Below, piece by piece: positions 3,189-28,427 of a DNA stretch of 64,000 bases. The stretch spans positions 46,529 to 110,528 of the forward strand of contig JAHEXW010000002.1 in NCBI GenBank assembly GCA_023251915.1, in the 5' to 3' direction. Numbering within the stretch: the stretch's first letter is position 1; every line of letters begins with the position of its first letter. This stretch comes from Actinomycetes bacterium (GTDB taxonomy: Bacteria > Actinomycetota > JAHEXW01). The position numbers and the translations under genes are program-made. The notes under the pieces were generated by a model. The model was not told where the DNA came from and ran no database searches. It worked only from the letters and a program-made list of their open reading frames with translations.

Positions 3189-3209
3189 AGGATGTCCTTT
3201 GCGATTTGC

Positions 3210-3368
3210 TTAGGCAGATGGTGTTTTGCGAACAGTATCGCTCAGATGCGTTATTTCCTGTTTCAACTTGGCTATTTTAACAGCCAGGTAACCTACATAT
3301 CCGGTTAGAAGCAACCAGGCGACCACATAAGCGCCCAGAACGTACGGGGCCATTTTGATATCAGGCAT
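3210..3368 (-). CDS. ccmD: Candidate heme exporter protein D (CcmD-like small membrane protein). Not in the ORF track because it is only 52 aa
   Basis: My own translation: MPDIKMAPYVLGAYVVAWLLLTGYVGYLAVKIAKLKQEITHLSDTVRKTPSA. One transmembrane helix. Starts 2 nt after the ccmC stop. The position matches ccmD in ccmABCD operons. Confidence 0.5.
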   Translation of the reverse strand: MPDIKMAPYVLGAYVVAWLLLTGYVGYLAVKIAKLKQEITHLSDTVRKTPSA

Positions 3369-3369
3369 A

Positions 3370-4065
3370 TTATTTCCCTCCGTTTTCGATGGCGTCTTTG
3401 ACGTCGCGCAAGCCGTCTTGCATGTTTTCGATATCGATCTTTACCAACAGGAGCGCGACATATAGCAACGTAAAGCCAAGCATCGACAGCAGCAGCCAGA
3501 TGTACATGCTGGGTTCAAGGCCCGAATCTTTTGCCCCGATCACGACCGGGTGCAGGACGTTCTTGATTAAGCGCGTGGACAAGAACGAGACGGGCACGTC
3601 TAGGGCGGCGATAATGCCAAAGACCGCGGCAAACGTTGCTTGCCGGCTGCGCTCGGTCACCATGGAGCGCAAGAAGAAATACGCCCCGAAAAGCAGCAAT
3701 AGGATGAGGTAGGTCGTCAGTCGCGGGTCCCAGGTCCACCAGACGCCCCAGGCGAGATAATCCCAGGTCATTCCGAATACCATCAAAACGACACCGAACA
3801 CCAGCCCCAGCTCAGCCGAGCAATACGCCGCTACGTCATACTTCAGTTCCTTCTTGATGAGATACATAACGCTAAAGACCAGCGTCGCCAGGAACGCGAT
3901 GAAACTCAAGATGGCCACAGGCAGATGCCAATAGAATATCTTCTGTGAGAAACCGGTCTGGGCCGCCGGCAGCACCGGCTCGACCACGAAGATGCCATAG
4001 AGTGAGATAACCAACAGGACGCCAGCCAGAATTGAAAGCCCTATCGTAATGTTTTTCCGGTTCAT
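3370..4065 (-). CDS. ccmC: Heme exporter protein CcmC
   Basis: Canonical WWD motif WGVWWTWDPRLT, with flanking His residues in YWHLP and VLHP. The start was moved to the internal ATG at 4065 (MNRKNITIGL), which has a GGAG Shine-Dalgarno. The longer track ORF would overlap the ccmB 3' end. Confidence 0.85.
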   Translation of the reverse strand: MNRKNITIGLSILAGVLLVISLYGIFVVEPVLPAAQTGFSQKIFYWHLPVAILSFIAFLATLVFSVMYLIKKELKYDVAAYCSAELGLVFGVVLMVFGMTWDYLAWGVWWTWDPRLTTYLILLLLFGAYFFLRSMVTERSRQATFAAVFGIIAALDVPVSFLSTRLIKNVLHPVVIGAKDSGLEPSMYIWLLLSMLGFTLLYVALLLVKIDIENMQDGLRDVKDAIENGGK

Positions 4066-4105
4066 TGTACTCCTTGTACTCTTCGTACTCCTTGGACTCC
4101 TGAAA

Positions 4106-4789
4106 CTACTCACCAATCACGAAATCATAAAGTGCGTATCCGGCCAGGAGGAATATTATATCAAAAGCGATGATCAAATATAGCCAAGAGCTCATGTCAA
4201 CGGCCGCCGTACCCCCCATGATGAGGGCGTTTGTATAGGAAACCACCTGCATCATGAACGGTGTCATAACCGGCAGATATAGGATCGGCAGCAGTAGATC
4301 ACGCGCCCGGGTATTGGCCGATATTGTTGCCAACAGCGTACCAACGCCACAAATCCCCAAATCGCCGAGCAGTAAGACCATCGCCAGCTTGAGGGCAGCT
4401 GCGCCCGTTAATCCGCCCAGAAAAAAGAGCGCGAAGATCGGCACGACGATTACTTGTAGAACGATAAGGAAAATCAGATTGCCCGCTAGTTTCGCCAGAA
4501 AGATGACCGGGCGATCGACCGGCGTCAGCAACAAGCCGTCCAAGCACTGCTCATCCTTCTCATGAACAAAGCTGCGGTTAAGGCCGAGCAGGGACGTGAA
4601 CAGCACGGCGACCCACAACATTCCCGCGGCAACCGGTGTCAGGTCCTTAAGGTTCGGCGAGAACGCGAAATGGAAGATGACCAGCGCCATGATGCTGAAC
4701 AGGAAGGTCGACGTAAAGACATCCTTGCTGCGGATCTCCAGCAGAAGATCCTTGCGCAGAATGGCCCAGAACTGCTTAGTCGCACTCAT
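4106..4789 (-). CDS. ccmB: Heme exporter protein CcmB (ABC permease)
   Basis: Starts MSATKQFWAILRKDLLLEIR. Six-transmembrane-helix CcmB-like hydrophobic profile. Its start overlaps the ccmA stop by 14 nt. The track ORF runs further upstream inside ccmA. Confidence 0.85.
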   Translation of the reverse strand: MSATKQFWAILRKDLLLEIRSKDVFTSTFLFSIMALVIFHFAFSPNLKDLTPVAAGMLWVAVLFTSLLGLNRSFVHEKDEQCLDGLLLTPVDRPVIFLAKLAGNLIFLIVLQVIVVPIFALFFLGGLTGAAALKLAMVLLLGDLGICGVGTLLATISANTRARDLLLPILYLPVMTPFMMQVVSYTNALIMGGTAAVDMSSWLYLIIAFDIIFLLAGYALYDFVIGE

Positions 4790-5507
4790 TGCTGTCTCCC
4801 GTGACGCAGACGCGCCGGTAGGTAGCCTTGAGTTCGGCGGGGTCTGGCCGGTCGGCGGAATCGTAAACGATCTGGCCGTTCTTGAGGATGATTGCCTTGG
4901 TTCCCAGCTCCAGACTGCGTTCAAGGTTATGCGTGACCATGACAAAAGTATGGTCGGCCCGCAGCTCCTCAATGATGCCGTCCAGAATATCCACGGCGTG
5001 CGGATCGAGCCCGGTTTGTGGTTCATCCAAAAAAAGCAGTTCGGGGCGATGCAGCAGCGCGCGCGCTATGGCCAAGCGTTGAAACATACCGCGGGAGAAA
5101 TCGCGCACGGTGTCGTAACGCCGGTGGGTAAGCTCGACCCGTTCGAGCAGTTCCGTAATGCGGTCGTCCAAGTCTTCCACGCCGTACATCTCGCCATAGA
5201 AGCGGAGGTTCTCATAGGTCGTCAGGTCACGATAGAGAAGATGGCTGTGGGAAATGAAACCGATACGACGGCGAATCTCAGTCGGGTCGCTCTTTAGGGA
5301 ATAGCCGAGGACAGACGCGTCGCCGGCAGTTGGCGCCAGCAGTGTTGCCAGCACGCGCAGCAGGGTCGTCTTCCCCGCGCCGTTAGGGCCAAGCAGGAGC
5401 AGAAACTCGCCGCGATCCAGCGTCAGATCGATACCCGCCAAAATCGCCCGCCGGCCGAAATTCTTGGTTAAGCTTCGGACCTCTAGCGCCGGGCCAGCCG
5501 TGTTCAT
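4776..5507 (-). CDS. ccmA: Heme exporter ATP-binding protein CcmA
   Basis: Walker A GPNGAGKTTLLR, ABC signature SRGMFQRLAIARAL, Walker B LLFLDEP. Confidence 0.9.
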   Translation of the reverse strand: MNTAGPALEVRSLTKNFGRRAILAGIDLTLDRGEFLLLLGPNGAGKTTLLRVLATLLAPTAGDASVLGYSLKSDPTEIRRRIGFISHSHLLYRDLTTYENLRFYGEMYGVEDLDDRITELLERVELTHRRYDTVRDFSRGMFQRLAIARALLHRPELLFLDEPQTGLDPHAVDILDGIIEELRADHTFVMVTHNLERSLELGTKAIILKNGQIVYDSADRPDPAELKATYRRVCVTGDSNECD

Positions 5508-7495
5508 TTTGCCGGGGCGCCCGGCCGTTTCGGCACCACGGCGATGATGACGCCTAGGATTAGCAGTATACTGCCGGCCCAGACAAAAGAGATCAAGGGG
5601 TTGATCTTGACCTCAAAAATCAGCTGATTGGAGTTGTTGATTCCCTGGAACACCATGAAGATATCGCGGAACGGTTGAATAATCACGTCGGCGTTCATGC
5701 CGGGTTGCTCTCGCACCGTATAGTAGATGTAGGCTGGTTCGGCGTTTCTTAGCGCGTGGCCGTTCTCGTCGACAACCTTAAAGACTGTGGTGTTGATCTC
5801 TTTTCCCGTTCCCTTGGTTTGTTCATAACCCTGATAGGTGAATTTCATTTTACCGGCGCTGAAGCTGGCGCCCTTTTTGTCCGCCAGAGTCTTGGACAGT
5901 GACACCGTGTACATCGAGCTGCCGATCAGGCCGATGACGACGATCGCCAAACCGAGGTGGGTAATAAACCCTCCGGCTTGCCCGGGTGTCTTCATGAAGA
6001 AACCGCCAACCGCCGCTGCGAGGCCTTCCCCGCTCTGCATCCTCTGCCTGATCTTGCTGCCGTATATCTGGCAAGCAGCAGCGATGGCAAAGGTCGCGAC
6101 GACAAAACCGACGTACCCGAGCCAACCGTTGGCCGGCAAGACCTGCGTCGGATTGACCGATTTAACCATCGCCTCCAGGCTCTTCCAATAGAAGTACCAC
6201 GGCACAGCGCTAACCAAAGCGATTACTCCCGGAACAAGCGCCCGCCGGCCGAATTTCATCAGGTTCGTCTCGCCAAAGCTGAGTAAAGGACAGACAGAGA
6301 TCAAGAACAAAAGAACGATACCGAGAGGTTGCGCGATCGCCGAATAAACGCCCGCTCCGACCGTCTGTTTGGTGATTTGCGGCAAGAACGCGCCAACTAG
6401 AATGATCAGCGAGCAGAATATGAGCAAGATGTTGTTGATGTGATAGACGGCGTCACGCGACAGATACGACTGGAAAATGTGCTTGCTCTCAAAGGCCTGC
6501 CACCGGTTGAAAAGCAGATAGCCGGTAACGCCCAGGACGGTGACGATGACGGCCGCATAGTAGACGAGAATGGCCGTTGTGCCTTCAAAGCTGTGTACCG
6601 ATTGAACGATGCCCCCGCGAGTCATGAACGCCGCCATTATGACCATGAAGAAGGCGAAAACGCTCATCGACACCGCCCAGCGTTTGAAACTCTGACGTTG
6701 GCGGTAGATGTGGAACGAATGCAGGAGCGCTGTGGCGCCTAGCCATGGTAACAAGCTGGCGTTCTCAACCGGATCCCAACCCCAGTAGCCGCCCCAGCCC
6801 AGAACGACATAGGCCCAGGCCGCGCCGAGAAATATGCCGAGCGACAAGAACAGCCAGCCGACGAGCGTCCACCGTTGGCTGCGCTCAACCCAAGCTGGCG
6901 AGGCGTCGCCGGTAAGCAGCGCCGCGAGCGCATAGGCAAACGGCACCGTCATCAGCGCGTAGCCCATGAACAACGTGGGAGGATGGAGGACCATCGCCCA
7001 GTGCAGCAGCAGCGGATTGATTCCCAAACCGACCGTGACGGCCGCGATCTTAAAGGGGTTGCCCAAGACCAGCATGAAGGCCAGCATGAATGCCTGGACG
7101 GCGCTCATGACCATCAGGGCGTTGCTCGTGAGAACGTCATAGACATGGGAGCGCAGGTAGGCGATCAGCGCCGCCGCGCCTGATACGAACCACAACCACA
7201 AGAGGAACGAACCCTCCTGGCCGGCCCAGAACGCGCTGATGCGATAGAACAGGCTCATGTCCGCGCTGGAGTTGGCGGCGACGTAATCAAACGAATAGAC
7301 CTTGGCGATGAAACCGTAGAGCAGGATCAGGCAGGCCAGGGTGACAAACCCGAATATGGCATAAACCATTTGGTACGGGAGCTTCATTTGATGCTCGGGC
7401 GAACCCGTCCTACCGGAGCGTACGTAGAGAAGAGTGACTGCCGACACAGCTGCTATGGCGGCTAAAACCAGGGCGATATACCCAAGGTACGTCAT
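5504..7495 (-). CDS. ccmF: Cytochrome c-type biogenesis protein CcmF (heme lyase component)
   Basis: 663 aa, polytopic. WWD motif WGGYWGWDPVENASL. Confidence 0.9.
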   Translation of the reverse strand: MTYLGYIALVLAAIAAVSAVTLLYVRSGRTGSPEHQMKLPYQMVYAIFGFVTLACLILLYGFIAKVYSFDYVAANSSADMSLFYRISAFWAGQEGSFLLWLWFVSGAAALIAYLRSHVYDVLTSNALMVMSAVQAFMLAFMLVLGNPFKIAAVTVGLGINPLLLHWAMVLHPPTLFMGYALMTVPFAYALAALLTGDASPAWVERSQRWTLVGWLFLSLGIFLGAAWAYVVLGWGGYWGWDPVENASLLPWLGATALLHSFHIYRQRQSFKRWAVSMSVFAFFMVIMAAFMTRGGIVQSVHSFEGTTAILVYYAAVIVTVLGVTGYLLFNRWQAFESKHIFQSYLSRDAVYHINNILLIFCSLIILVGAFLPQITKQTVGAGVYSAIAQPLGIVLLFLISVCPLLSFGETNLMKFGRRALVPGVIALVSAVPWYFYWKSLEAMVKSVNPTQVLPANGWLGYVGFVVATFAIAAACQIYGSKIRQRMQSGEGLAAAVGGFFMKTPGQAGGFITHLGLAIVVIGLIGSSMYTVSLSKTLADKKGASFSAGKMKFTYQGYEQTKGTGKEINTTVFKVVDENGHALRNAEPAYIYYTVREQPGMNADVIIQPFRDIFMVFQGINNSNQLIFEVKINPLISFVWAGSILLILGVIIAVVPKRPGAPAK

Positions 7496-8038: not shown

Positions 8039-8632
8039 CTATTTCTTCCCTTTATTGTAATGACATATCTCGCACTTGACTGGTGCCTTCCTGGCCTTAT
8101 GGCAGGAGATACAGTCCTTCATCTGAACTGTGTTCTTGGCCTTCGGGGTCTGGTCGTGAACCAAGTTTTTGTGACAATCGACGCACTTGTACGGGTTGCC
8201 TTTCATCTTGTGATGCCCGGAAGGCAGCTTGAGGTCGTTTTGCATTGTGATCTTACGATGCTCGGCGTGGCACACAATGCAGTTGGCGTTGGGTACGGAA
8301 GGTCCGGCCTCTGCCGCGTCGGGACGGAAAACGATCGCGACAACGATCTGGCGAAACAGGGCGCCTTTGGCGACGCCCCAGCCGATAATCCCCGAACCGC
8401 TATGACAAGACAAACAGCCTGCCTTCGCGTGCGTCGATTTTGTCCAGGTGGCGTAATACGGCTTCATTACGTGGCAAGTGCCGCAGAAGCTATCGCGAGA
8501 CGTGTAGACGGAAGGTATTCCGATGATCAGGATCAACAGAAGCGCCAAACCAAACAGCGGCGTCCAGCCTTTTAGGCCGCGGCGCGGCGCGCGGCGAGAT
8601 GGCCGGCCTAGCCGGTTGGAGTCAGCCGTCAC
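8039..8632 (-). CDS. Membrane-anchored hexaheme c-type cytochrome (NapC/NirT/NrfH-like)
   Basis: 197 aa with an N-terminal transmembrane helix. Six CxxCH motifs: CGTCH, CLSCH, CIVCH, CVDCH, CISCH, CEICH. Its start overlaps the stop of the upstream CcmC-like gene. Confidence 0.8.
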   Translation of the reverse strand: MTADSNRLGRPSRRAPRRGLKGWTPLFGLALLLILIIGIPSVYTSRDSFCGTCHVMKPYYATWTKSTHAKAGCLSCHSGSGIIGWGVAKGALFRQIVVAIVFRPDAAEAGPSVPNANCIVCHAEHRKITMQNDLKLPSGHHKMKGNPYKCVDCHKNLVHDQTPKAKNTVQMKDCISCHKARKAPVKCEICHYNKGKK

Positions 8633-9306
8633 TTTGGTTCCCCTTTGCTCGTAAGGCGGCGGACCAAAAGGACGGAAATGATCGCCGCGGCTGCCAAGGA
8701 AATGAATATACCTAAAGTATCATACTTAATCAGGGAGCTAGATGAATTACTAATTGGATTCGTGGTCGGATGCATTACGGCGGGGACGCGAGCCACCAGT
8801 ATCCAGACAACCACGCCCATGACAACGTTAAGAAAGCTGATGATCTTCGGCTGTTCGAAAACCGTCTCCAAGAGTGCGATGGCCACCAGCGTTACCAAGA
8901 TGGAGGCGGCCAAAAGGAACCGCGGTTCAGTCCAGATGATTCCGCCCCAGGCTAGCTTCATGGCCAGGACGCTGGAGGTTATATAGACAAACCAAAAGAT
9001 GAGCGTGACCGCTTTGGCCGGCTGAGACCATTCAAAGAAGACCCGGCGACCCGTCGCCAGATGAAGCAAACCCAATAAGCCGACAACGGAAACTAGTGCC
9101 ATGCTGACGAAGACCAGGGCGGCGTGGAAGTAGATCAATTTGGCGGCATCACCCAATTGCCGCTCGGCAGGCGCCAGCCAGGCCAGCAGAACAGCACAGG
9201 CGACACACACACAAAGCCCGATTCCCAAGACAAGCGTGGCACCTCGGCGGTTAGCGACTGCGGTGTTAGTCACCGTGCCCCTGTCCCGCGACCATTTCCA
9301 GCGCAT
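8629..9306 (-). CDS. Divergent CcmC/heme-handling (WWD family) paralog
   Basis: Six predicted transmembrane helices. KLIYFHAALV aligns with YWHLPVAIL of the ccmC at 3370. WGGIIWTEPRF aligns with WGVWWTWDPRL. A conserved His in VMHPTT aligns with VLHPVV. The start is uncertain because it overlaps the mogA 3' end. Confidence 0.55.
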   Translation of the reverse strand: MRWKWSRDRGTVTNTAVANRRGATLVLGIGLCVCVACAVLLAWLAPAERQLGDAAKLIYFHAALVFVSMALVSVVGLLGLLHLATGRRVFFEWSQPAKAVTLIFWFVYITSSVLAMKLAWGGIIWTEPRFLLAASILVTLVAIALLETVFEQPKIISFLNVVMGVVVWILVARVPAVMHPTTNPISNSSSSLIKYDTLGIFISLAAAAIISVLLVRRLTSKGEPK

Positions 9307-14161: not shown

Positions 14162-14854
14162 TTAAACCTTCTTCTGCTGCGTTACGGTAATAATCCAGTT
14201 GACCAGGAAAGCCAAAGCCAACAGGATGATGCTCAAGGCGATAGCGATGGCCGTGTGGCCTTGTCTCGTCTCCTGGACGATCGCCGTCGTTAGCACCTGT
14301 GTCTGCCCCTTGATGTTGCCTCCGACCATGAGAACCGCGCCGACCTCGCTTATGATGGCGCCGAATCCAGCCGCGACCGCCGCCAGTAGACCCAGGCGGG
14401 CCTCCTTGACGACTTTGAAGAACAATTGCAATCGTGTCGCACCTAACGAGACTATCTGAGCGATCAGTTTCGGATCGAGCGCTTGGACGGCCGCCAAGGT
14501 TACGCCGATCACCATGGGAGTAGCGATAATCACCTCGGCGATAATCATCGCGCGAGTCGAATAGAGGAGATCGAGACCGCCGAACGGCCCGTAGCGCGAC
14601 AACATCAAGAAGACGAACAACCCGACGACAACGGGCGGCAAGGCCATACCGGTGTTTGTCAGGACAACCAGGAATTTCCGGCCTCTAAATTCGGTCAGGC
14701 CAAGCCATGCCCCCAACGGCAGACCCAGCACCATGGCGATCAGTGTCGCCGTCCCGGTAACCTTCAATGACGTCAGGAGGATAACTATAAGGTCGGTGTT
14801 AAAACCGACGATCATTTTGACGGCTTGGACTATGCCGTCCCAAATCACAGACAT
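14162..14854 (-). CDS. tupB: Tungstate/molybdate ABC transporter permease
   Basis: 230 aa, six transmembrane helices, with a binding-protein-dependent permease EAA-like loop. Confidence 0.8.
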   Translation of the reverse strand: MSVIWDGIVQAVKMIVGFNTDLIVILLTSLKVTGTATLIAMVLGLPLGAWLGLTEFRGRKFLVVLTNTGMALPPVVVGLFVFLMLSRYGPFGGLDLLYSTRAMIIAEVIIATPMVIGVTLAAVQALDPKLIAQIVSLGATRLQLFFKVVKEARLGLLAAVAAGFGAIISEVGAVLMVGGNIKGQTQVLTTAIVQETRQGHTAIAIALSIILLALAFLVNWIITVTQQKKV

Positions 14855-14890
14855 AGTTCGCGACTCCCTCTTGTTCGCCCGAATCTTTGA

Positions 14891-15073
14891 CTAGAAGCAC
14901 CCCAACGAACAACCCATGACCTTTATTTCCAGCTCGTTGCAGGCCTTGCCGACAACCGTGTAGGGCAGGCCCAATCTTTCGGCGATCTCGCGCGCTTCGG
15001 GACAAGTGATCTTGCCCCCGGTTGCTGCAGCCTTTACCGCTTCCGCCAGTTCCGTTTTCTTCGCAGCGTCCAT
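14891..15073 (-). CDS. Small conserved-looking protein of unknown function; first ORF behind the riboswitch candidate
   Basis: 60 aa: MDAAKKTELAEAVKAAATGGKITCPEAREIAERLGLPYTVVGKACNELEIKVMGCSLGCF. Strong AAGGAG Shine-Dalgarno. Has a possible helix-turn-helix-like stretch and a C-terminal GCxxGC. I do not recognise the family. Confidence 0.4.
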   Translation of the reverse strand: MDAAKKTELAEAVKAAATGGKITCPEAREIAERLGLPYTVVGKACNELEIKVMGCSLGCF

Positions 15074-15096
15074 GGCTTCTCCTTGCTAATCGTCCT

Positions 15097-15262
15097 GACA
15101 AAAATAAACGCGCTTCCCCGCATAGTGGAAAGCGCATTCAGAGAACACACTTCTCTCCTTTCCAAGCGCGGGAGGCACAGAAATCGCTCGCTGTACCCTT
15201 TCCCGACTCAATCAGCCGGGATGCCCTCGCCGTCCGCGTGGGTGCGGCGAGGGTCGGAGAGT
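15097..15262 (-). ncRNA. Candidate riboswitch (probably Moco/Tuco class) with an intrinsic terminator, copy A
   Basis: Shares conserved blocks with copy B, in minus-strand reading order: CTCCGACC, CGAGCGATT, GCCTCCCG, TTGGAAAGGAG. Then a GC hairpin (15108-15134) and a U-tract (15098-15107). It sits upstream of the small ORF, tupB, tupC and moeA. Confidence 0.5.
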
Positions 15263-15436
15263 TTGTATGATTTGTTGCAATCTATGCTTTGAGAATACCA
15301 GGGTCGGCCCGGCTAAGTCAAGAGCCAAACACCGGCGTATGGCGGCCCACCAGCATTTAGTATTACAATGGTCGCGTCACCAGTCGACTTCATTACTCCA
15401 TTTAAGTGAAGTAATGAAGTATCAAGAAAGGGAACA

Positions 15437-16240
15437 GTGTTGCAGAACCCGGTCATCGAGGTCAACGGCTTAACGAAACGATACGGTGATTTCAGCGCGG
15501 TGGATGGCATCGACTTCACGGTCGGCTCCGGCGAATTCTTCGGTTTCGTCGGCCCCAATGGCGCCGGCAAGACGACGACCATCAGTATGCTCTGTACGCT
15601 GGCAAAACCGACGGCCGGCACCGCGACAATCGCCGGCTTTGACGTTGCCGCCCAATCCGACCAGGTCCGCCGGCAGATCGGCGTCGTCTTCCAGGAAGCG
15701 ACCCTAGATAACCGTTTGACCGCTCGCGAGAATCTTGCGTTCCATGCGGCCGTCTATCATGTGCCTAGGGCGGAACGCGACGCGCGGCTGGCGGATGTGC
15801 TCGACCTGGTGGAACTGACCCGATTCGCCGACGATATCGTGGACAACTTCTCCGGCGGCATGCGGCGCCGGCTGGAGGTCGCTCGCGGTTTGCTTCATTC
15901 CCCGAAGGTCTTGTTCCTGGACGAACCGACCTTAGGCTTAGACCCGCAAACCCGCAATCGCATCTGGGAATATCTGCGGCGGCTGGCCGATCGCGATGAC
16001 ATGACCGTCTTCATGACGACCCACTACATGGATGAGGCGGAGAATTGCGACCGCGTCGCCGTCATCGACCGAGGCGCGCTTGTCGCCGTCGATACACCCG
16101 CCGCACTTAAACGCCAGACGGGCGAGACGACCCTGGACGGCGTCTTCCTAAAACTTACCGGCCAGGCTATCCGAGACGAAGACGTCCTGACCAATAAGCA
16201 TATGAGCCGGATCGCGGCCAAGGCGAAGGGAGGCCGCTAA
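15437..16240 (+). CDS. ABC transporter ATP-binding protein (ABC-2/DrrA type)
   Basis: Walker A GPNGAGKTTT, signature FSGGMRRRLEVARGL, Walker B VLFLDEPT. Confidence 0.85.
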   Translation: MLQNPVIEVNGLTKRYGDFSAVDGIDFTVGSGEFFGFVGPNGAGKTTTISMLCTLAKPTAGTATIAGFDVAAQSDQVRRQIGVVFQEATLDNRLTARENLAFHAAVYHVPRAERDARLADVLDLVELTRFADDIVDNFSGGMRRRLEVARGLLHSPKVLFLDEPTLGLDPQTRNRIWEYLRRLADRDDMTVFMTTHYMDEAENCDRVAVIDRGALVAVDTPAALKRQTGETTLDGVFLKLTGQAIRDEDVLTNKHMSRIAAKAKGGR

Positions 16241-16987
16241 ATGGATCTCGATGCGATCTATATGATTTGGCGGCGCGACTTGGTGGTTAACTGGCGCGAC
16301 AAAGGCCAGCTGATTGGCAGCCTGGTTCGATCCATACTGTGGCTGGTCGTTTTGGGACTCGGACTGCGGGCGGCCTTTCGCAGCGTCGGCGGCGTCACCT
16401 TCAGCCAGTACATCTTTGCCGGCATCATCGGTATGACTCTGTTATTCGCCGGCGTCCAATCGGCGATATCAATTGTCTGGGAACGTGAATTCGGGTTCTT
16501 GCGCGAGTTATTGGTCGCCCCGATTCCTCGCGGCGCAATCACGACGGCTAAGATGCTCAGCGGCGCTACCTGGGCATTATTGCAGGGCGTAATTGTCCTG
16601 GCGCTGGCGCCGATAGTCGGAGTGTCGCTCACGCCGCTGATTGTTGCCGAAGCTATCGGCGTTATGGCGATCATGGCCATCATGATGACCAGCATCGGAA
16701 TCGTCATCGCCTCGCGCATTAAGAGTTTTCAGGGGTTCGGAGTTATCGTCAACGTCGTCTTAATGCCAATGTTCTTCCTTAGTACCGCCATCTTCCCGAT
16801 GCCGTGGCTGCCGGAATGGCTGCGGACGATAATGATGTTCAACCCGTTGACCTACGCCGTGGACGCCCTGCGCACCGTGACCATCGGGCTGTACGACTTC
16901 CCGTTCTGGTTCGATCTGGGACTTACGGTCGGACTGGCAATTTTGTTCGGAGTCCTGGCGAGAGTGTTATTTGTCAAAGAGATATAG
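16241..16987 (+). CDS. ABC-2 family transporter permease
   Basis: 248 aa, six transmembrane helices. Its ATG directly follows the ATPase stop. Confidence 0.8.
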   Translation: MDLDAIYMIWRRDLVVNWRDKGQLIGSLVRSILWLVVLGLGLRAAFRSVGGVTFSQYIFAGIIGMTLLFAGVQSAISIVWEREFGFLRELLVAPIPRGAITTAKMLSGATWALLQGVIVLALAPIVGVSLTPLIVAEAIGVMAIMAIMMTSIGIVIASRIKSFQGFGVIVNVVLMPMFFLSTAIFPMPWLPEWLRTIMMFNPLTYAVDALRTVTIGLYDFPFWFDLGLTVGLAILFGVLARVLFVKEI

Positions 16988-17034
16988 GCCGCGACCAGGC
17001 GACTCAGTCGTGTCGCGCTAAACAAAGAGGAATA

Positions 17035-17793
17035 ATGACAGGCCAAGGAATATTCAGTGTGTCAGGCAAGAACGCCATCGTAACAGGCGGCGCGCTCGGT
17101 ATAGGTTTCGGTATCGTGAAACGCTTGACCGAAGCGGGCGCCAACGTGCTGATTGCGGACATGAATGAAGACGCGGCTAAGGCGTCCGCCGAAAAACTGG
17201 GCGAAAGAGTAGCCGCGATGAAAGCTGACGTCTCGCAAGACGCGGAAGGCATTGTCGCCCGCTGCGTCGAGATATTCGGATCCCTCGACATATTCGTAAA
17301 CAACGCCGGCATCTACCCGATGTCTCTCATGGCGGAAACGTCGACTGATCTATTCGACAAGGTCTACCAGGTTAACTTAAAGGGCACAGCGTTTTGCGCC
17401 AAAGCCGCCGCGCAACAAATGATCAACCAAGGGTCAGGCGGTAAAATCATTAACGTCGCATCAATCGACAGCTTCCATCCGTCAATGGTCGGCCTGGCTG
17501 CCTACGACGCGTCCAAGGGAGGCGTCTTGATGCTGACCAAAAGCCTCGCTCTCGAATACGCGGCCCACAATGTCCTGGTTAACGGCATCGCACCCGGCGG
17601 TATTCTTACCGAAGGAGCCGGAGCGGGCAAGATGGACGAGGCGATGATCAGTGGCTTCGCGTCGCGCATTCCGCTTCAACGAATGGGCACCCCGGACGAC
17701 GTCGCGAAGGTAGCGCTGTTTCTAGCCTCGGACGCGGCTGATTATATGACAGGCTCGATCATCGTCGTAGACGGCGGCGTCCTGCTGGCCTAA
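17035..17793 (+). CDS. SDR family oxidoreductase
   Basis: Starts MTGQGIFSVSGKNAIVTGGALGIGFG (Rossmann TGxxxGIG). Has a YxxxK catalytic pair (YDASK) and an AAAGAGG Shine-Dalgarno. The track ORF extends upstream. Confidence 0.85.
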   Translation: MTGQGIFSVSGKNAIVTGGALGIGFGIVKRLTEAGANVLIADMNEDAAKASAEKLGERVAAMKADVSQDAEGIVARCVEIFGSLDIFVNNAGIYPMSLMAETSTDLFDKVYQVNLKGTAFCAKAAAQQMINQGSGGKIINVASIDSFHPSMVGLAAYDASKGGVLMLTKSLALEYAAHNVLVNGIAPGGILTEGAGAGKMDEAMISGFASRIPLQRMGTPDDVAKVALFLASDAADYMTGSIIVVDGGVLLA

Positions 17794-17808
17794 CGTCAAC
17801 AAGCTGCT

Positions 17809-18699
17809 TTAAGGGTTCCCTGTTGCCGCGCTGGGCGTGAACAAAGCCTGGCCGTATTTGGCCTTCCCGAACTTGCCGATGAGCTTTTGAACCTCGGGTG
17901 ATGTGATCCAGTCGACGAACTTCTTGGCGTCGACCTCGTTCACCTTGGCAAACTTCGCGTTGTTGACGATGATCACGCCATACGGATTGAAGAGGTCTTT
18001 CTGGTCCTCGACCAGTATCACCAGGCTGATGGATTTCTGAAGAGACAGAAACGTTCCGCGGTCGATCAGGATATAGGCCTGCTTTTCGTTGGCGATCTTC
18101 GCCGCCTCTCCCATGCCCTGCCCGACGTTAACGTACCAATCACCGGCGGGCGTAAGGGCAGCCTTTGTCCAGATCGACAACTCTTTAGTATAGGTGCCGG
18201 AGTTGTCGCCGCGGGTCACGAACGGCGCTTGCGCGGCCGCAATAGCCGCGAACGCTTTGGCGGGACTAGCGCCCTTGATACCGGCTGGATCGCTCGCCGG
18301 GCCGATAATCACGAAGTCGTTATACATTACGTCCTTGCGCAGAGAACCGAAGCCGTCTGCCATGAATTTGTCTTCTTTTGCCCGGGCGTGCACTAATAGA
18401 ACATCAGCTTCACCGCGCTGACCCATCGCAATCGCCTCGCCGGTTCCCACAGCGATTGGCTTTGTCTTGACGTTATATTTCTTGTCAAACATCGGCAGCA
18501 GATAATCAAGCAGGCCGGTATCGGCTGTGCTGGTGGTCGTCGCCAGAATCATGTTTGTCGCCGGCGGGAGCGGCTTGGCCGCCTGTTTCGTTTCCGTCTT
18601 TGTCGCACAGCCGAACGCTCCGATTGCCAGAAATAGTCCCAGAACAACCGCGGCCAGTGTTCGCAACATCGTCTTTTTCGTGCTTCTCAGCCCTTTCAT
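17809..18699 (-). CDS. tupA: Tungstate ABC transporter substrate-binding lipoprotein TupA
   Basis: Signal peptide with a lipobox-like GAFGC. Diagnostic TupA TTTS motif in ILATTTSTADTGLLDYL. Confidence 0.85.
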   Translation of the reverse strand: MKGLRSTKKTMLRTLAAVVLGLFLAIGAFGCATKTETKQAAKPLPPATNMILATTTSTADTGLLDYLLPMFDKKYNVKTKPIAVGTGEAIAMGQRGEADVLLVHARAKEDKFMADGFGSLRKDVMYNDFVIIGPASDPAGIKGASPAKAFAAIAAAQAPFVTRGDNSGTYTKELSIWTKAALTPAGDWYVNVGQGMGEAAKIANEKQAYILIDRGTFLSLQKSISLVILVEDQKDLFNPYGVIIVNNAKFAKVNEVDAKKFVDWITSPEVQKLIGKFGKAKYGQALFTPSAATGNP

Positions 18700-18727
18700 T
18701 TTGCCCCCTTGTTAAACAACCACCGGA

Positions 18728-18898
18728 TAATAAAAAACGCGCTGCCCAAGGAAAAGGATAGCGCGCGTCAATAGACTATTCGTCGCTCCTTTCCAAATTC
18801 GGGAGGCGGGTCGATTGCTCGGCCCACCCTGACTCCCGGCCAAAACCCGGCCGGTCGATCGCCCCGGACATCCCAGAGGGACGGACGGGGTCGGAGTA
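18728..18898 (-). ncRNA. Candidate riboswitch (probably Moco/Tuco class) with an intrinsic terminator, copy B
   Basis: Same conserved blocks as copy A, in minus-strand reading order: CTCCGACC, CGAGCAATC, GCCTCCCG, TTGGAAAGGAG. Then a GCGCGCT/AGCGCG hairpin (18737-18768) and a U-tract. It sits immediately upstream of tupA. Confidence 0.5.
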
Positions 18899-19010
18899 AT
18901 ATTCGATTGTGACTAGAGGTTATCAGGCTTGTAACATATGTGTCAAGGAAATTGGGTAAGCAATTATCGCAAGATAGCTATGGTCTTGCATTTATCCGAG
19001 ACAGACCGGT

Positions 19011-22514: not shown

Positions 22515-25500
22515 CTATCGTACCGTTACCACGGTCGGTTGCGACCAGCCGGATACCGTGCCGTTGGCAACAACGGTCTCGACCTTAGTCTCATAGTTTC
22601 CAGCTAACGACCACGTGTGCGTCTCTATAGCCGGCCACATATTAAAAATCTCGGCGGTTGTGTAGAATCTTGTCGTCGTTGTCGACCCGTCTCCCCAAGC
22701 GAAAACGAATCTGATCGGCTCGAAGATAAGCCTGTTGGCAAGAACCGCGGTGTACGTGGCACGCGTGTTGCACACGACGGCCGCCGGGCCTGTCGGCGTC
22801 AAAGGAACAGGCAGCGGCGTCTGGTTGATAGTAATCCTCAGCGGTAATGACGTTTCCGATTTCGCTCCCCGCGCGTCTGTCGCCTTTACCAAAACGGTAT
22901 AGACGCCTACCTCGTTCCAAATGTGAGTGATTTCGCCGGCCATTCCCGACGGGCTCGTACCTGTCGAGCCGGACGTTCCGTCGCCCCAATCAAATGTGTA
23001 GCCTACTCCATCACCGTCGAGGTCGGTAGCTAAGGCGGACACCGAAACCGGCCGCTTGGCGAAACCGGTCGGACCGCCTACTATATTCGGGATCCCGGGT
23101 GCGTGATTAATGCCGACGGTCAGCGCCTCCGACCACCCGGTCCAGCCATCGGTGCTAGCGTCTCCGACTCTGACTTTGACCGCGAATTCGCCGCCTGTCG
23201 GCCAGTGATGGGAGAGACTAGCCGTCGCGCCAGACGACACGCCAGCGGTTTCGCTCGTTGTTCCGTCACCCCAGTCAAAAACATAGGTTAACGAATCGCC
23301 GTTGGCGTCTTGCGCCACGGTCGTGTAGGTAAGCTCGTCGCCGGGATTAGCGGAGACGGGCCCGTCCGGTCGCGCGGGAACGCCCGGCAGTTCATTTCTG
23401 ACCGCCACGCGCTTGGGCTGAGACCAGACGGATACGGCACCCAGATCGTTGGCGGCGCGAACCCTGACGTCATACTCTTCCGTCGCTGCAGCTGTTATTC
23501 GTTGCCAAATATGCGGAACTGATACCAGTGTTCCGGAAGATACTGCGGCAGTGGTCTCGGTCGTTCCGTCACCCCAGTCAAACGTATAGCATACGTTACG
23601 GCCGGCCGGGTCACGCGACGCCGCTGCGTACCCAACCGACTGACCAAACAGGACCGACGCCGATCCGGATGGCGCCTGCGGCACGTCCGGGGCACCGCAA
23701 ATCTGAATCACTGTATCCTCCATCGCCCAACCCGAGGACAAGCCCCACACGTCAGTCGACCTGATCTTTATGGTAAACAATCCGGCGGACGCCCAGGCGT
23801 GGGACATTGAAACTTCGGTCCTTGACTCGACAGATTCGCTCGTACTGGTCGTACCGTCGCCCCAATCGAACGTAAAAGCCAACCGGTCATCATCCGGGTC
23901 ATAGCCAGCCGTGTTGAACGAGTAGCTTTGGCCGGTAATTCCCAAGCTCGGCCCGCCGGCACTGGCGGGCGGCATAGGCGCCTGGTTAATAAAAACGCTG
24001 GCCGGCGGAGACCAACCGGATGTTACGCCCAGTTCATCCACCGCTCTAACCTTGACCTGGTATGTGCCCCCTAGGTTCCAGGTATGACTGAGGGTTGCTC
24101 CGACACCGCCGGATGCCAGCAAGGCTGATTCATCGGTTCCGCCATCGCCCCAATCGAAAACATACTTTACTCTGTGGTTGTCCGGGTCGGTCGTAACGGC
24201 CGAAAAACTCCCGCTGGCGCCTAACTCCACAGCCAGGGGACCCTGCGGTTTGGCCGGCGTTAGCGGCGTTGAGTCATGAGCCGTAATATTCAGGGAAGAG
24301 CACCAACCGGATGCCGCGCCGGTCGAATCAATGGCCTTTACCTTAACCAGATAGGCTCCGCCGGCCGGCCACACATGCGTCGCGGTACCGTAGATGTTTG
24401 AGCTATATTCCCAGTAGGCATAGTACCTAGTCGTGGTCGTCGTACCGTCGCCCCAATCGAACAGGTATTGAATGTCCTGGTGTTCCGGATCACTCGACCG
24501 GGCGCGATAGGAATATTCCAACCCGACGGTTGCGGCTGATGTACCGGACAGGTTCGACGGTGTCCCGGGCGCCCGGGTCAGAATGGTGACAGACAGTGTC
24601 GATGACCAGACGGACGCCGTGTTATAGATATCGGTTGCTTTGACCTTAACCGCGTAGACCCCGCTGGCCGGCCAGCTGTGGGAGGCGGAGGCGGCCGCAC
24701 CCGAAGCCAGAGCGTTAGTGTCCGTAGTCGTTCCGTCGCCCCAGTCGAACGTGTATATCAGCTGGTCAACGTTGCCATCTGTGGTGCTGCTGGTATACGT
24801 TGCCGGAGTTGCCGTGTACATCGACGCCGTGCCGCTAGGAGTTGCCGGTTTAACGGGTGCGACATTGTCGGCTGGAAAAACGTACACCGTCGCGGTCGAA
24901 ATAGTCGATCGCGCTCCAAACTGATCCATCGCCCGCAACCGTACCGTATATGTGCCCTTGGTTGTCCAGGTGTGCGTTGCGGCGGCGGTACTGCCCGACC
25001 CAAGCCAACCGGTCTTGCTTGTCGTTCCGTCGCCCCAGTCGAACGTATACTGGATTTGATCGCCCTCGGGGTCGGATGACGAAGTGTTAAAGGAACCGGT
25101 CAGGTTCTGACCCACCCGTATGTCACCCTGCAGCGCGGCCGGCGCCGTCGGTCCGTGGTCAATGATATGGATCTCGTTGACGTTTGACCACGCAGAAACC
25201 CGGCCGTCTTGGGTTATGGCCTTGGCTTTAACCTGGAACAGGCCCGGCGCGGTCCAGGTGTGCGCCAGCGTGACCGTTCCGCCCGAATACGTCTGGAAGG
25301 ATGTGTCGGTTGTACCGTCTCCCCAATCGAAGACATATGTCATCGGCCGGCCGGCGCCATCGGTGGTAGCTGTGCTGAAATTAACGGAAACGCCCTTGAA
25401 ATAGGTTGTAATCCAGTATTGGTCCAGTTCGGGAATACCCGGCGCGGGCGGAGCCTCCAGCCTGACGGTGACCCAAGTGGCCGCGGACCAGGCCGATACG

Positions 25501-28427
25501 AGTCCCGTGGCATCGGTTGCCTTGACCCGGACAGGATAGACACCGGGAGCTGTCCAAGCATGGGCCTGGGACATCGAAAATCCCGGATATTCTGCCCAGC
25601 TGGTCGTTGACGTACCATCGCCCCAGTCAAATACATATGTAACCCGATTCTGATCAGGGTCGTCACTTGTAGTTGTGTAGCCGACTAGTTCGCCCGTATA
25701 GGCATTGACGTAACCAGTCACAACAGGCACAGTTGGCGGATGATTGGCGGCAGCCACTGTTACGCTGGTCGGCGGACCCCAATCAGACGTCTGACCGTAT
25801 GAATCAGTCGCCTTGACCTTGATACTATAAGAACCCGTCGCCGTCCAGATATGCGAGGTGAAGGGGCAATAGTTGTAAGGGTAGTCACCAATCGACGTTG
25901 TCGTGCCGTCACCCCAGTCTATCGTGTACGAAATCTCGTCCTGGTCTGCATCGCCGCAGTTGCTAAGCGTAAAACGCGCTTCCACATCCGGCGCCGCGGT
26001 CGAACTGCCTTGCATGGCCGGTGCGTTGGGCAAGTTGTTCGCACCCGTTATTATCATCGACAGCGGATCAGACCAAGCCGAACTCTCGCCGTCAGCCGCC
26101 ACCGTCTTAACCCGAAGAGCGTACGTTCCCGCGGCGGCCCAGGTGTGCGACGTGCCCAGCGCCGACCCCATCCACCAGTCGACATTGTAAAAGGTAGTCG
26201 AGGTCTGCGGTGTACCGTCGCCCCAATCAAACACTAGTTTAAGATCCCTATAGAATAAGTCTTGCGCCCATGCAAAATAGTTCCTAGTAGTGTTGGGCGG
26301 CAAATGGGTTTTTCCGAACGGTGTACCGGGCGTGGTTATAGGCGCTCCGACGTCAATCTCGACCGGACTTGACCAAGACGACGTCTCGCCGTCCGCGTTT
26401 ACCGTACGCGCCTTTATGAAATAGGCGCCCGCGGCGGTCCAGGTATGGTCGGCCTGAACGAAATCGACGCTCATCATGTATTCGGAAAACGCATAGAGAC
26501 GCGTCGTTGTCGTCGTTCCGTCGCCCCAATCGATGACAACCCGGCACGGTTCCAGATTGTAATCCATCACCTGGAGACCATAATTGCAATATTGGTTGAC
26601 GCGCAGCCAGACACTGCCGGTTGTGAACATCGGCGGTTCCGGGGTCCGCGGAACAGTCACGTGAGCGACGGCAACGACATCGTGACCATCGAGATCGGTA
26701 ACCGTTAGTCTGAGTTCGTATATCCCGCCGGACAGGCCGGTCGCGTCCCATGATCCAAGGCTTCCATTGGAAACGGGTGTCGCCGAACTGGTGACCGTAT
26801 GCCAGGCGGCCGGGGTTGTTCCGGCGCCCCACTCCAGCTTGAAGGAGGCGAACCGAGGGCCGGTCGCCGTACCGGTAATCGCCACGACGTCTTTTGCGAC
26901 GCCGCTGTCCACGGGCGAAGAAATAGCGGCTTTTGTCTGGCCGGCCTGCAACGCGGCTGCGGCGTTGATTCGGCCGTAGCCATAATATTGGTCCCAACCG
27001 GGGGCTCCCTTGTCATCTGCGGTTTGTTCAATCATGTATTGCAGGTCGGCGGGGCTCGCGTCCGGATAGCGGCTTTTCAACAGCGCCGCGACGCCGGATA
27101 CGCTGGGGCAGGCCATTGAGGTGCCGGACAACGTTCCATAGCCGTGGTTATCTCCTAAGGAAGAAGTCTCAAATGTCGGCAACGTCGAATAGATGCGGGA
27201 GCCGGGGGCTGCGACATCAACGAACGGCCCGAAATTAGAGTAGCTGGCCCTGGTGTCGTTGTGGTCGGTCGCGGCGACAGTCAACACATTCTCCAAATCT
27301 GCCGGGTAGAAAAGACCCTCGCTATTTTCGTTACCGGCCGCGCCCACTACCAGACAGCCCGCGCCCGTCGCATCGTTTACGGCGTCCTGCAGCGCTTGGC
27401 TGTAACCGCCGCCGCCCCAGCTGTTGTTGATGATGTCAGCGCCATGTGCTTGCGCATAACGAATCGCTTTGACCGCGTCGGACGTCAGCCCGCTGCCATT
27501 CCACTCTAGGAACTTAAGCGGCATGATCTTGACGTTCCAGTTCACGCCGGTGATGCCAAACCCGTTATTACCGCAAGCGCCGATGATGCCGGACACGTGG
27601 GTGCCGTGCCCGTGGTCGTCCAGGGGGTCCGCGCAAACTGTCTTGTACAGTACGGGGTCCGCCCAGCCGTAGGCGAAACACCAACCTCTAACGTCATCGA
27701 TATAACCGTCGTGGTCATCATCAAGATTATTCGTCGCCATATCACGACCCTGCGCGTCGATTCCCATTTCGCCGGCGTTGGTCCAAACGTTACCGGCTAG
27801 ATCGGTATGGGTGTAGTCAATGCCGGTGTCGATTACGGCAACTATGACGTCCGTGCTGCCGGTCGTAGTATCCCAAGCCGTCGTGGCCTTAATATCGGCG
27901 CCGCTCGTCCCGCCCGTCTGACCGGTATTCTTTAAGTTCCAGAGCTTGCTGAAATCGGTGTCGCTGGGTATCGTTTCGCAAGTATGGACGACGTAGTCCG
28001 GCTCGGCATAAGCGACTGTCGGGGATTGTTTTAACGTCGCATCGGCCTGCTTAACGCTGGTTCCCTTTTTCAAGTGAACAATAGCTACGTCGCTGTCGCC
28101 GATTGTTTCTTCGATTTTGCCGATCGGTGCTACAGCGGCGGCGATTTCAGCCTCGCTGGCGGACGACTTAAAACTAACAATGATTTGGTCAGATTTGTAC
28201 TCTACGTCTGTGTCCTTGATAACCGCGTTTCCGCTTAGAGAAATTCTGGCTGCAGACGGGGTTGCCCGAGAGTCAAGCACTGGCTTTTGTGGCAAGTCGG
28301 GAGAGGCGGATTGCCGATTGCGCAATTCCGTGAGGCGAGTCGGCGCGGCCTGAGGTTTGCCGGACAGCACAATAAGGATGGCTAAAACAGAAGCGACTGC
28401 TCCAAAAAATACTATCGTCCGCCGCAC
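22515..28427 (-). CDS. Secreted S8 subtilisin-like serine peptidase carrying 14 tandem PKD-like domains (1970 aa)
   Basis: Signal peptide, a probable I9 inhibitor propeptide, and the catalytic triad DTGID (D200), HGTHVSG (H275), GTSMACP (S436). Then 14 repeats of about 93 aa, each built around [YF]xFDWGDGT. Confidence 0.85.
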   Translation of the reverse strand: MRRTIVFFGAVASVLAILIVLSGKPQAAPTRLTELRNRQSASPDLPQKPVLDSRATPSAARISLSGNAVIKDTDVEYKSDQIIVSFKSSASEAEIAAAVAPIGKIEETIGDSDVAIVHLKKGTSVKQADATLKQSPTVAYAEPDYVVHTCETIPSDTDFSKLWNLKNTGQTGGTSGADIKATTAWDTTTGSTDVIVAVIDTGIDYTHTDLAGNVWTNAGEMGIDAQGRDMATNNLDDDHDGYIDDVRGWCFAYGWADPVLYKTVCADPLDDHGHGTHVSGIIGACGNNGFGITGVNWNVKIMPLKFLEWNGSGLTSDAVKAIRYAQAHGADIINNSWGGGGYSQALQDAVNDATGAGCLVVGAAGNENSEGLFYPADLENVLTVAATDHNDTRASYSNFGPFVDVAAPGSRIYSTLPTFETSSLGDNHGYGTLSGTSMACPSVSGVAALLKSRYPDASPADLQYMIEQTADDKGAPGWDQYYGYGRINAAAALQAGQTKAAISSPVDSGVAKDVVAITGTATGPRFASFKLEWGAGTTPAAWHTVTSSATPVSNGSLGSWDATGLSGGIYELRLTVTDLDGHDVVAVAHVTVPRTPEPPMFTTGSVWLRVNQYCNYGLQVMDYNLEPCRVVIDWGDGTTTTTRLYAFSEYMMSVDFVQADHTWTAAGAYFIKARTVNADGETSSWSSPVEIDVGAPITTPGTPFGKTHLPPNTTRNYFAWAQDLFYRDLKLVFDWGDGTPQTSTTFYNVDWWMGSALGTSHTWAAAGTYALRVKTVAADGESSAWSDPLSMIITGANNLPNAPAMQGSSTAAPDVEARFTLSNCGDADQDEISYTIDWGDGTTTSIGDYPYNYCPFTSHIWTATGSYSIKVKATDSYGQTSDWGPPTSVTVAAANHPPTVPVVTGYVNAYTGELVGYTTTSDDPDQNRVTYVFDWGDGTSTTSWAEYPGFSMSQAHAWTAPGVYPVRVKATDATGLVSAWSAATWVTVRLEAPPAPGIPELDQYWITTYFKGVSVNFSTATTDGAGRPMTYVFDWGDGTTDTSFQTYSGGTVTLAHTWTAPGLFQVKAKAITQDGRVSAWSNVNEIHIIDHGPTAPAALQGDIRVGQNLTGSFNTSSSDPEGDQIQYTFDWGDGTTSKTGWLGSGSTAAATHTWTTKGTYTVRLRAMDQFGARSTISTATVYVFPADNVAPVKPATPSGTASMYTATPATYTSSTTDGNVDQLIYTFDWGDGTTTDTNALASGAAASASHSWPASGVYAVKVKATDIYNTASVWSSTLSVTILTRAPGTPSNLSGTSAATVGLEYSYRARSSDPEHQDIQYLFDWGDGTTTTTRYYAYWEYSSNIYGTATHVWPAGGAYLVKVKAIDSTGAASGWCSSLNITAHDSTPLTPAKPQGPLAVELGASGSFSAVTTDPDNHRVKYVFDWGDGGTDESALLASGGVGATLSHTWNLGGTYQVKVRAVDELGVTSGWSPPASVFINQAPMPPASAGGPSLGITGQSYSFNTAGYDPDDDRLAFTFDWGDGTTSTSESVESRTEVSMSHAWASAGLFTIKIRSTDVWGLSSGWAMEDTVIQICGAPDVPQAPSGSASVLFGQSVGYAAASRDPAGRNVCYTFDWGDGTTETTAAVSSGTLVSVPHIWQRITAAATEEYDVRVRAANDLGAVSVWSQPKRVAVRNELPGVPARPDGPVSANPGDELTYTTVAQDANGDSLTYVFDWGDGTTSETAGVSSGATASLSHHWPTGGEFAVKVRVGDASTDGWTGWSEALTVGINHAPGIPNIVGGPTGFAKRPVSVSALATDLDGDGVGYTFDWGDGTSGSTGTSPSGMAGEITHIWNEVGVYTVLVKATDARGAKSETSLPLRITINQTPLPVPLTPTGPAAVVCNTRATYTAVLANRLIFEPIRFVFAWGDGSTTTTRFYTTAEIFNMWPAIETHTWSLAGNYETKVETVVANGTVSGWSQPTVVTVR
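22518..26630 (-). repeat. Coding tandem repeat array (about 280 nt period) encoding the PKD domains of the S8 peptidase
   Basis: Fourteen recurrences of the FDWGDGTT-encoding unit at roughly 93-codon spacing. The DNA copies are divergent. Confidence 0.6.

Follow-up and report, generated by a model that had tools for sequence, protein, structure and literature searches.

Two Moco-family (RF01055) leader RNAs as probable termination switches of a split Tup-type transporter in an Actinomycetes bacterium

The DNA analysed here is a stretch of 64,000 nucleotides from an Actinomycetes bacterium of the lineage JAHEXW01 (Actinomycetota; assembly GCA_023251915.1, contig JAHEXW010000002.1, positions 46,529 to 110,528 of the forward strand), hereafter called the window. 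Its minus strand carries two structured leader RNAs, one upstream of a stand-alone gene for a TupA-like tungstate/molybdate-binding protein (copy 1) and another upstream of a small open reading frame (ORF) that is followed by tupB- and tupC-like genes (copy 2). Both leaders are, with a probability that we put at about 85%, cis-acting riboswitches that belong to the Moco RNA motif family (RF01055; Moco, molybdenum cofactor) and act as transcription-termination OFF switches, a figure that refers to the riboswitch and its termination mechanism and not to the identity of the metal. As RNAs they are ordinary members of a family known since 2007-2008, which any Rfam-based annotation would detect; it is only in the combination of aptamer architecture and regulated genes that they are slightly unusual.

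Identification and structure of the two leaders

A scan of the whole window with Rfam 15 (cmscan) at the curated thresholds returned two tRNAs and two RF01055 matches, one for the copy 2 leader at 15271..15140 (minus strand; 53.5 bits, E-value 5.4e-10) and one for the copy 1 leader at 18908..18770 (minus strand; 49.1 bits, E-value 1.1e-8), both over the gathering score of 36 bits. The two matches span the full model (positions 1-135 of 135) with no truncation. In a permissive Rfam scan of the window (E<=1) no third or weaker RF01055 copy was found, the sole extra match being a chance-level small RNA. The first-pass annotation of this DNA had already proposed the leaders as candidates for the Rfam Moco class, and these scores confirm that assignment; their location was also correct, although its starting positions are a few bases short of those of the Rfam matches (18908 and 15271). 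The same annotation had described a set of ordered sequence blocks common to both leaders, and all four of them (CTCCGACC, CGAGC(G/A)AT(T/C), GCCTCCCG and TTGGAAAGGAG) are present on the minus strand in the same order. A pattern made of the outer blocks (TCCGA-N85-115-GGAAAGGAG) has exactly two matches in the window, both in the leaders, where shuffles expect 0.04. Moreover, the family-invariant junction nucleotides CUCCGA, AGGG, GCCUCCC and GGAAAGGAG are all kept in both copies, as seen in the sequence, in the cmscan alignments and in the minimum free energy (MFE) folds.

The copy 2 aptamer (15140..15271, minus strand; identified by cmscan, MFE fold and covariation) is composed of stem P1 (15261-15256 / 15158-15153, plus an outer extension CAUAC/GUGUG), P2 (15253-15224), P3 (15221-15201), P4 (15198-15173, closed by a GCGA tetraloop) and a P5/junction element (15172-15162), and the MFE of the single sequence gives the family structure together with the terminator (z = -2.95). 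The copy 1 aptamer (18770..18908, minus strand; identified by cmscan, single-sequence folds and covariation in eight clade sequences) contains the same elements: P1 (18897-18893 / 18789-18785), P2 (18890-18862, lacking the receptor bulge), P3 (18854-18836), P4 (18829-18804, with a GCAA tetraloop) and P5/junction (18803-18793). The fold energy of leader 1 is, by itself, indistinguishable from that of shuffles (z = -0.54), and for this reason its structure is based on the covariance model and the comparison with homologues.

Orthologous leaders, with the same RNA in the same position, were found in six related uncultured Actinomycetota-like contigs. The closest one (L001, from a metagenome-assembled genome of an uncultured "Actinobacteria bacterium") codes for a TupA that is 87% identical to that of the window and carries an RF01055 match of 56.1 bits in the same position; four others (L091-L094), whose TupA proteins are 69-82% identical, carry this RNA ahead of a tupA gene that stands alone; and L086 shows the layout of copy 2, with a divergent ABC/ABC-2 (ATP-binding cassette) gene pair, a putative promoter, an RF01055 match (58.5 bits), a 60-aa ORF, tupB and tupC. 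Each window copy is nearer its orthologue elsewhere than the other window copy; the two are, therefore, old paralogues and not the product of a recent duplication. A further match to the pattern, in L081, was put down to chance, having neither an Rfam match nor the family fold.

Covariation was analysed in eight clade sequences, namely the two window copies plus L001, L086, L091, L092, L093 and L094, because a MAFFT alignment that included the distant P3-containing RNAs L021 and L043 misaligned P2 and P3; these two were, therefore, excluded from the count. RNAalifold recovered P1, P2, P3, P4 and P5 unguided. Compensatory changes affecting both sides were observed in 18 of 33 pairs (P3 stands out, as its six pairs all change on both sides), 92.7% of the cells are standard pairs compared with 36-52% when the partners are slid, and none of 500 shuffles reached the observed covariation, all of these figures being somewhat flattering since the structure was predicted from the same alignment, although the independent Rfam model agrees with it. 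The ordered blocks are also kept upstream of tupA and tupB orthologues in these related genomes, together with compensatory changes, in line with their earlier description as a conserved structured leader. A different explanation would be that the conserved leaders are protein-dependent attenuators, or a plain 5' untranslated region structure that merely resembles the riboswitch family. This is very improbable: both leaders match, over its whole length and above the curated threshold, a covariance model in which sequence and structure are scored jointly, every family-invariant junction nucleotide is retained, the covariation is strong and the gene context is the one typical of the family.

Terminators and a possible switching mechanism

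Both aptamers are followed by an intrinsic-terminator-like hairpin, the GC hairpin plus U-tract that the first-pass annotation had seen at the end of each copy. The terminator of leader 1 (18732..18766, minus strand) is formed by the arms GCGCGCU-A-UCC and GGG-C-AGCGCGU around the loop UUUUCCUU and ends in U6; its stem (18766-18737) has an energy of about -13 to -16 kcal/mol, is followed by TTTTTT and precedes the ribosome binding site (RBS) and the ATG of the 296-aa binding protein at 18699. The terminator of leader 2 (15096..15140, minus strand; detected in a terminator scan) has a 14-bp stem (15140-15105; -19.7 kcal/mol) and then UUUAUUUUU, with TTTATTTTTG as the U-tract after the stem; AAGGAG and an ATG at 15073 come next. 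A 112-aa ORF (14799-15137) that overlaps this terminator has no family match and was judged spurious. In all eight clade leaders, a hairpin with its U-tract lies 14-25 nt past the invariant GGAAAGGAG.

Upstream of each aptamer there is a promoter-like site. In leader 1 it was read from the sequence (18917..18946, minus strand) and consists of TTGACA (18946-18941), an 18-nt spacer and a TG-n-TAACCT element (TGaTAACCT, 18925-18917). This TTGACA-N18-TGaTAACCT arrangement is a putative promoter from which the transcript would start at around 18911-18909; a strict consensus scan gave no match at this site, and its TGATAACCT element is identical in the orthologue L001. The site of leader 2 (15292..15321, minus strand) was detected by the consensus scan, with TTGACT (15321-15316), an 18-nt spacer and TG-g-TATTCT (15300-15292), and the TTGACT...TGGTATTCT arrangement is also found in the orthologue L086.

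According to the mechanism that we propose, each RNA would be transcribed from its own promoter and would fold into a multi-stem aptamer with P1, P2, P3, P4 and a short P5. At high levels of the metal-pterin cofactor, its binding to the aptamer would lock P1 (in copy 2, including the outer P1 extension), so that the 3' strand GGAAAGGAG and the linker would be held in the aptamer, the GC hairpin with its U-tract could form and RNA polymerase would stop before the coding region (OFF). When the cofactor is scarce, the freed 3' strand or linker would base-pair with the terminator's 5' arm, leading to read-through. The two switches would provide a common feedback signal to a transporter that is split into tupA alone and small ORF-tupB-tupC, the latter together with moeA-moaA-moaC-MOSC-moaB. 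The E. coli member of the family has been shown genetically to be an OFF switch (PMC2408646) and, in the simplest reading, the OFF direction proposed here would agree with its behaviour. The expression platform is different, since an intrinsic terminator is found in both window leaders whereas the E. coli moaA leader works by sequestration of the RBS.

Candidate antiterminators can be drawn for both copies. In copy 1, the aptamer's 3' strand (GGAAAGGAGCG, 18794-18784) is complementary to the stretch CGCU-AU-CCUUUUCC, which covers the terminator loop and its 5' arm; the duplex has an energy of -14.7 kcal/mol, was equalled by 37 of 500 shuffles and is the MFE structure of transcripts that end before the 3' arm of the terminator in copy 1, L091 and L094. 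In copy 2, the linker AAGUGUGUUC (15152-15143), which is identical in L086 and whose GUGUG doubles as the outer extension of P1 with CAUAC, can pair with the terminator 5' arm GAAUGCGCUU, forming a duplex of -14.3 kcal/mol (9 of 500 shuffles were equally good). These pairings are, thus, putative, the evidence for them being truncated-transcript snapshots and duplex calculations, and several points weigh against the proposed mechanism. Their support against shuffles is only moderate, and weak in L091 (102/500) and L086 (133/500). Besides, the antiterminator was discarded as a ground state, because full leaders always fold to the terminator, even when the 5' strand of P1 is blocked; since the terminator is the thermodynamic optimum of the full leader, an antiterminator could be kinetic at best. 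Finally, Moco binding in vitro has not been shown for any member of the family (PMC2408646).

The two transcription units and their neighbourhood

The genes downstream of the leaders, on the same strand, are Tup-like, moe and moa genes, as expected from the first-pass annotation, which had both leaders preceding tungstate/molybdate uptake and Moco genes. Copy 1 precedes a stand-alone gene (17809..18699, minus strand) that codes for a 296-aa TupA-like tungstate/molybdate-binding lipoprotein (Pfam PBP_like_2, 4.9e-45) with a lipobox cysteine at position 31. Its score with the NCBIfam TupA model is 220 bits, under the equivalog cut-off of 400, and its closest solved structures in the PDB are the TupA proteins of Geobacter (3lr1) and D. 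alaskensis (5my5). For the D. alaskensis protein, a role in binding tungstate is attributed to the TTTS motif, His59, Arg118, Thr124 and Asp170 (PMC5517513). The corresponding ligand residues of the window protein, T54-T55-T56-S57, H104, R163, T169 and D213, align to both 5my5 and 3lr1 and are invariant in 28 homologues.

The second unit (all minus strand) starts with a 60-aa ORF (14891..15073) and continues with a TupB-like permease (14854-14162; Pfam BPD_transp_1; NCBIfam TupB 172 bits, cut-off 320) and a TupC-like ABC ATPase with a C-terminal TOBE domain (14161-13067; Pfam ABC_tran and TOBE), for which the nearest NCBIfam model is WtpC, also below its cut-off (273 bits, cut-off 440). Since the TupA and TupB scores are under the equivalog cut-offs, the transporter proteins are named here Tup-like. 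Downstream of them are moeA (13047-11734), moaA (11619-10648, which passes its NCBIfam equivalog cut-off with 344 bits against 284), moaC (ORF 10736-10170), a MOSC-domain gene (ORF 10257-9742) and a moaB/mog-like gene (ORF 9829-9266), with moeA, moaC, the MOSC-domain gene and the moaB/mog-like gene assigned by Pfam and NCBIfam. From their strand and spacing, moeA-moaA-moaC-MOSC-moaB are probably co-transcribed with tupBC.

The two units are separated by three genes of the opposite strand (15437-17793, plus strand), coding for an ABC ATPase (15437-16240), an ABC-2 permease and a short-chain dehydrogenase, so that the transporter is split into two transcription units, each one with its own riboswitch. 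The ABC/ABC-2 pair, for which no link to molybdenum or tungsten is evident, is also divergent from the orthologous riboswitch of L086, so that this neighbourhood is conserved. In the divergent intergenic region, between the putative promoter of leader 2 and the ABC ATPase gene, there is a near-perfect inverted repeat of 17+17 nt with no spacer (15387-15420; ACTTCATTACTCCATTT / AAGTGAAGTAATGAAGT), which could be an operator or a 5' untranslated region hairpin of the ABC-2 transporter unit. Beyond the moa genes and in the same direction lie a 225-aa ORF without family match (8629-9306, minus strand) and a gene for a multihaem NapC/NirT-like cytochrome c (8039-8632, minus strand), followed by cytochrome c maturation genes (2331-7495). 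Elsewhere in the window, a very long ORF of 1970 aa is found at 22515-28427 (minus strand).

The 60-aa ORF that heads the second unit has no Pfam or NCBIfam match and its homologues are labelled 'hypothetical protein' in the sources. Its few close homologues (L086 4001-4183; L087 3701-3952 and 4001-4174; L090 2253-2468) all adjoin tup, moe or mob genes, and the invariant residues are T23, C24, R28, E32, Y38, G42 and a C-terminal CxLGCF. When 1.84 billion representatives were searched with a profile of this domain, 1145 proteins were retrieved at E<=1e-3, many of them with two copies of the domain, some carrying it at the C-terminal end of a MobB-like P-loop protein and one as a fusion with HemD. 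The ORF is one member of a widespread Cys-containing domain that has no annotation and is linked to Mo/W cofactor genes. Its AlphaFold2 model is a small three-helix unit (predicted local distance difference test score of 78.6), for which a Foldseek search of the PDB gave only three-helix, homeodomain-like matches that were non-significant (E>1). Possibly, it is an accessory protein of the Mo/W cofactor, or a metal-binding protein, that has escaped recognition.

Molybdenum or tungsten cofactor as ligand

The RF01055 family was divided by Regulski et al. according to stem P3: P3-containing RNAs are found with Moco genes and those lacking it with genes for the tungsten cofactor (Tuco, also Wco) (PMC2408646). 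In that work, P3-containing RNAs were stated to be exclusively associated with molybdopterin (MPT)/Moco genes, and a study from 2024 still identifies Tuco riboswitches by the absence of P3, including the one in the tupABC leader of Eubacterium limosum (PMC11725836). In the window, three hairpins lie between CCGA and CCUCC, and P3 is present in both copies as well as in L001, L086 and L091-L094. The suggestion of the first-pass annotation that the ligand could be the tungsten cofactor variant is, consequently, at odds with the published signature, as both copies have a covarying P3. By this signature the window copies are of the Moco type, although the transporter genes that both precede are Tup-type; the copy 2 unit also contains moeA, moaA and moaC.

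Since both aptamers carry P3, the molybdenum cofactor is favoured as ligand and is the most probable one, with roughly even odds. The Tup system itself can supply molybdenum, because TupA proteins also bind molybdate with a nanomolar dissociation constant (PMC5517513). In L092 the unit formed by the RNA and tupA runs on into a TOBE gene and a gene of the sulfite oxidase family (PF00174), a molybdenum-enzyme family, which favours Moco too. Some other observations count against molybdenum. The regulated transporter is Tup-type and conserves every tungstate-binding residue. In a survey of 69 metagenomic tupA-homologue loci that included the leader, RF01055 was found upstream in 21 of them (22 RNAs); in these other lineages, 19 of the 22 tupA-linked RNAs have no P3, the class of L074 and L079 having been assigned by eye, and only L006b, L021 and L043 contain it. 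A search of the window's annotated parts for enzymes that could decide on the metal turned up genes for cytochrome c maturation, haem synthesis, CO dehydrogenase/prismane and housekeeping functions, but none for a Mo- or W-dependent enzyme. The clade of the window is, thus, a coherent minority that has "Moco-type" aptamers on "tungsten-type" transporter genes.

An alternative reading is that these riboswitches specifically recognise the tungsten cofactor and that P3 is not a Mo/W discriminator in this clade, which we regard as rather unlikely. The transporter is Tup-type, with the TTTS motif, H104, R163, T169 and D213 all kept; in characterised TupA proteins the affinity for tungstate exceeds that for molybdate about 1000-fold (PMC5517513); and the putative W type accounts for most of the RF01055 RNAs that precede tupA homologues. 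In addition, the P3 rule is a correlation that was never tested biochemically (PMC2408646), and the aptamers of this clade are already atypical, lacking the tetraloop receptor in P2 and having GCAA, GUAA or GCGA instead of GAAA as the tetraloop of P4. Against tungsten specificity, the covarying P3 of both copies and six orthologues is the published Moco signature (PMC2408646, PMC11725836), the nanomolar binding of molybdate by TupA (PMC5517513) would let the Tup system supply molybdenum and the L092 unit includes the sulfite-oxidase-family gene mentioned above. The aptamers could also be blind to the metal and sense the pterin loaded with either one, or a precursor common to both cofactors such as molybdopterin. 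One transporter and one moa/moe set would then serve both cofactors, the window has a single architectural type of RF01055, and the radii of molybdenum and tungsten are nearly identical (PMC2408646). This is, nevertheless, improbable, since the E. coli member gives no response to tungstate, so that at least one P3-containing RNA is able to discriminate between the metals (PMC2408646). Taking both together, that the P3-containing, receptor-less RF01055 variant of this clade is a sensor of the tungsten cofactor, or a metal-blind one, is only tentatively considered here.

Compared with the P3-containing Moco riboswitch exemplified by the E. coli moaA leader (PMC2408646), the window copies share the P1-P5 architecture, the invariant nucleotides and P3, they are likewise upstream of moa/moe genes and would follow the same OFF-switch logic. 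The first genes that they regulate are, however, Tup-type, whereas published P3-containing RNAs are found only with Moco/MPT genes, and P2 has no tetraloop receptor; this absence goes together with the non-GAAA tetraloop, as in the correlation described in 2008 (PMC2408646). With the Tuco/Wco variant (Regulski 2008; tupABC, WOR1 and fet leaders of E. limosum, PMC11725836) they share the family, the conserved core and the association with tup genes, and some E. limosum members (focA, fetABC1) use terminator hairpins as well, but neither the window copies nor their clade orthologues show the absence of P3 that defines this variant. The presence of more than one RF01055 RNA per functional system recalls the triple arrangement of S. 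wolfei (PMC2408646) and the tandem Moco and Wco riboswitches (PMC9481103). Unlike those tandems, the window copies head two separate units 3.5 kb apart and not a single transcript, which suggests that they keep a split transporter coordinated and do not serve to make a single dose-response sharper.

Among the surveyed loci, L006 contains two RF01055 RNAs in tandem (1348-1471 and 1512-1665, plus strand), the first without P3 and the second with it, ahead of a gene for a 372-aa membrane protein and a homologue of tupA. Provided that the P3 rule is valid, the locus would combine a Wco and a Moco input in one mixed arrangement; the available text of the tandem-riboswitch review describes only homotypic Moco and Wco tandems (PMC9481103). 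Among the TupA homologues, some have an N-terminal extension fused to them, and two of these (P0103 and P0107) carry a precomputed PF00174 (Oxidored_molyb) match. A 457-aa TupA homologue with an N-terminal extension is encoded in L021 (1257-2630, plus strand), with a P3-containing RF01055 RNA ahead of its gene.

Earlier work has reported terminator-type platforms as well as systems with several copies (PMC2408646, PMC9481103, PMC11725836). The only new elements are the instance itself, an arrangement in which each unit of the split transporter has its own switch, and a departure of the whole clade from the correlation between P3 and gene context. A cofactor-sensing signal common to the two separate units (tupA alone, and the small ORF-tupBC with moeA and moa) would account for the coordination of the split transporter. 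The clade-wide exception to the P3 rule offers a natural test case for whether P3 encodes metal specificity; should the variant of this clade sense tungsten or be metal-blind, P3 would not be a Mo/W discriminator and the rule by which 'Tuco riboswitches' are recognised would need revision.

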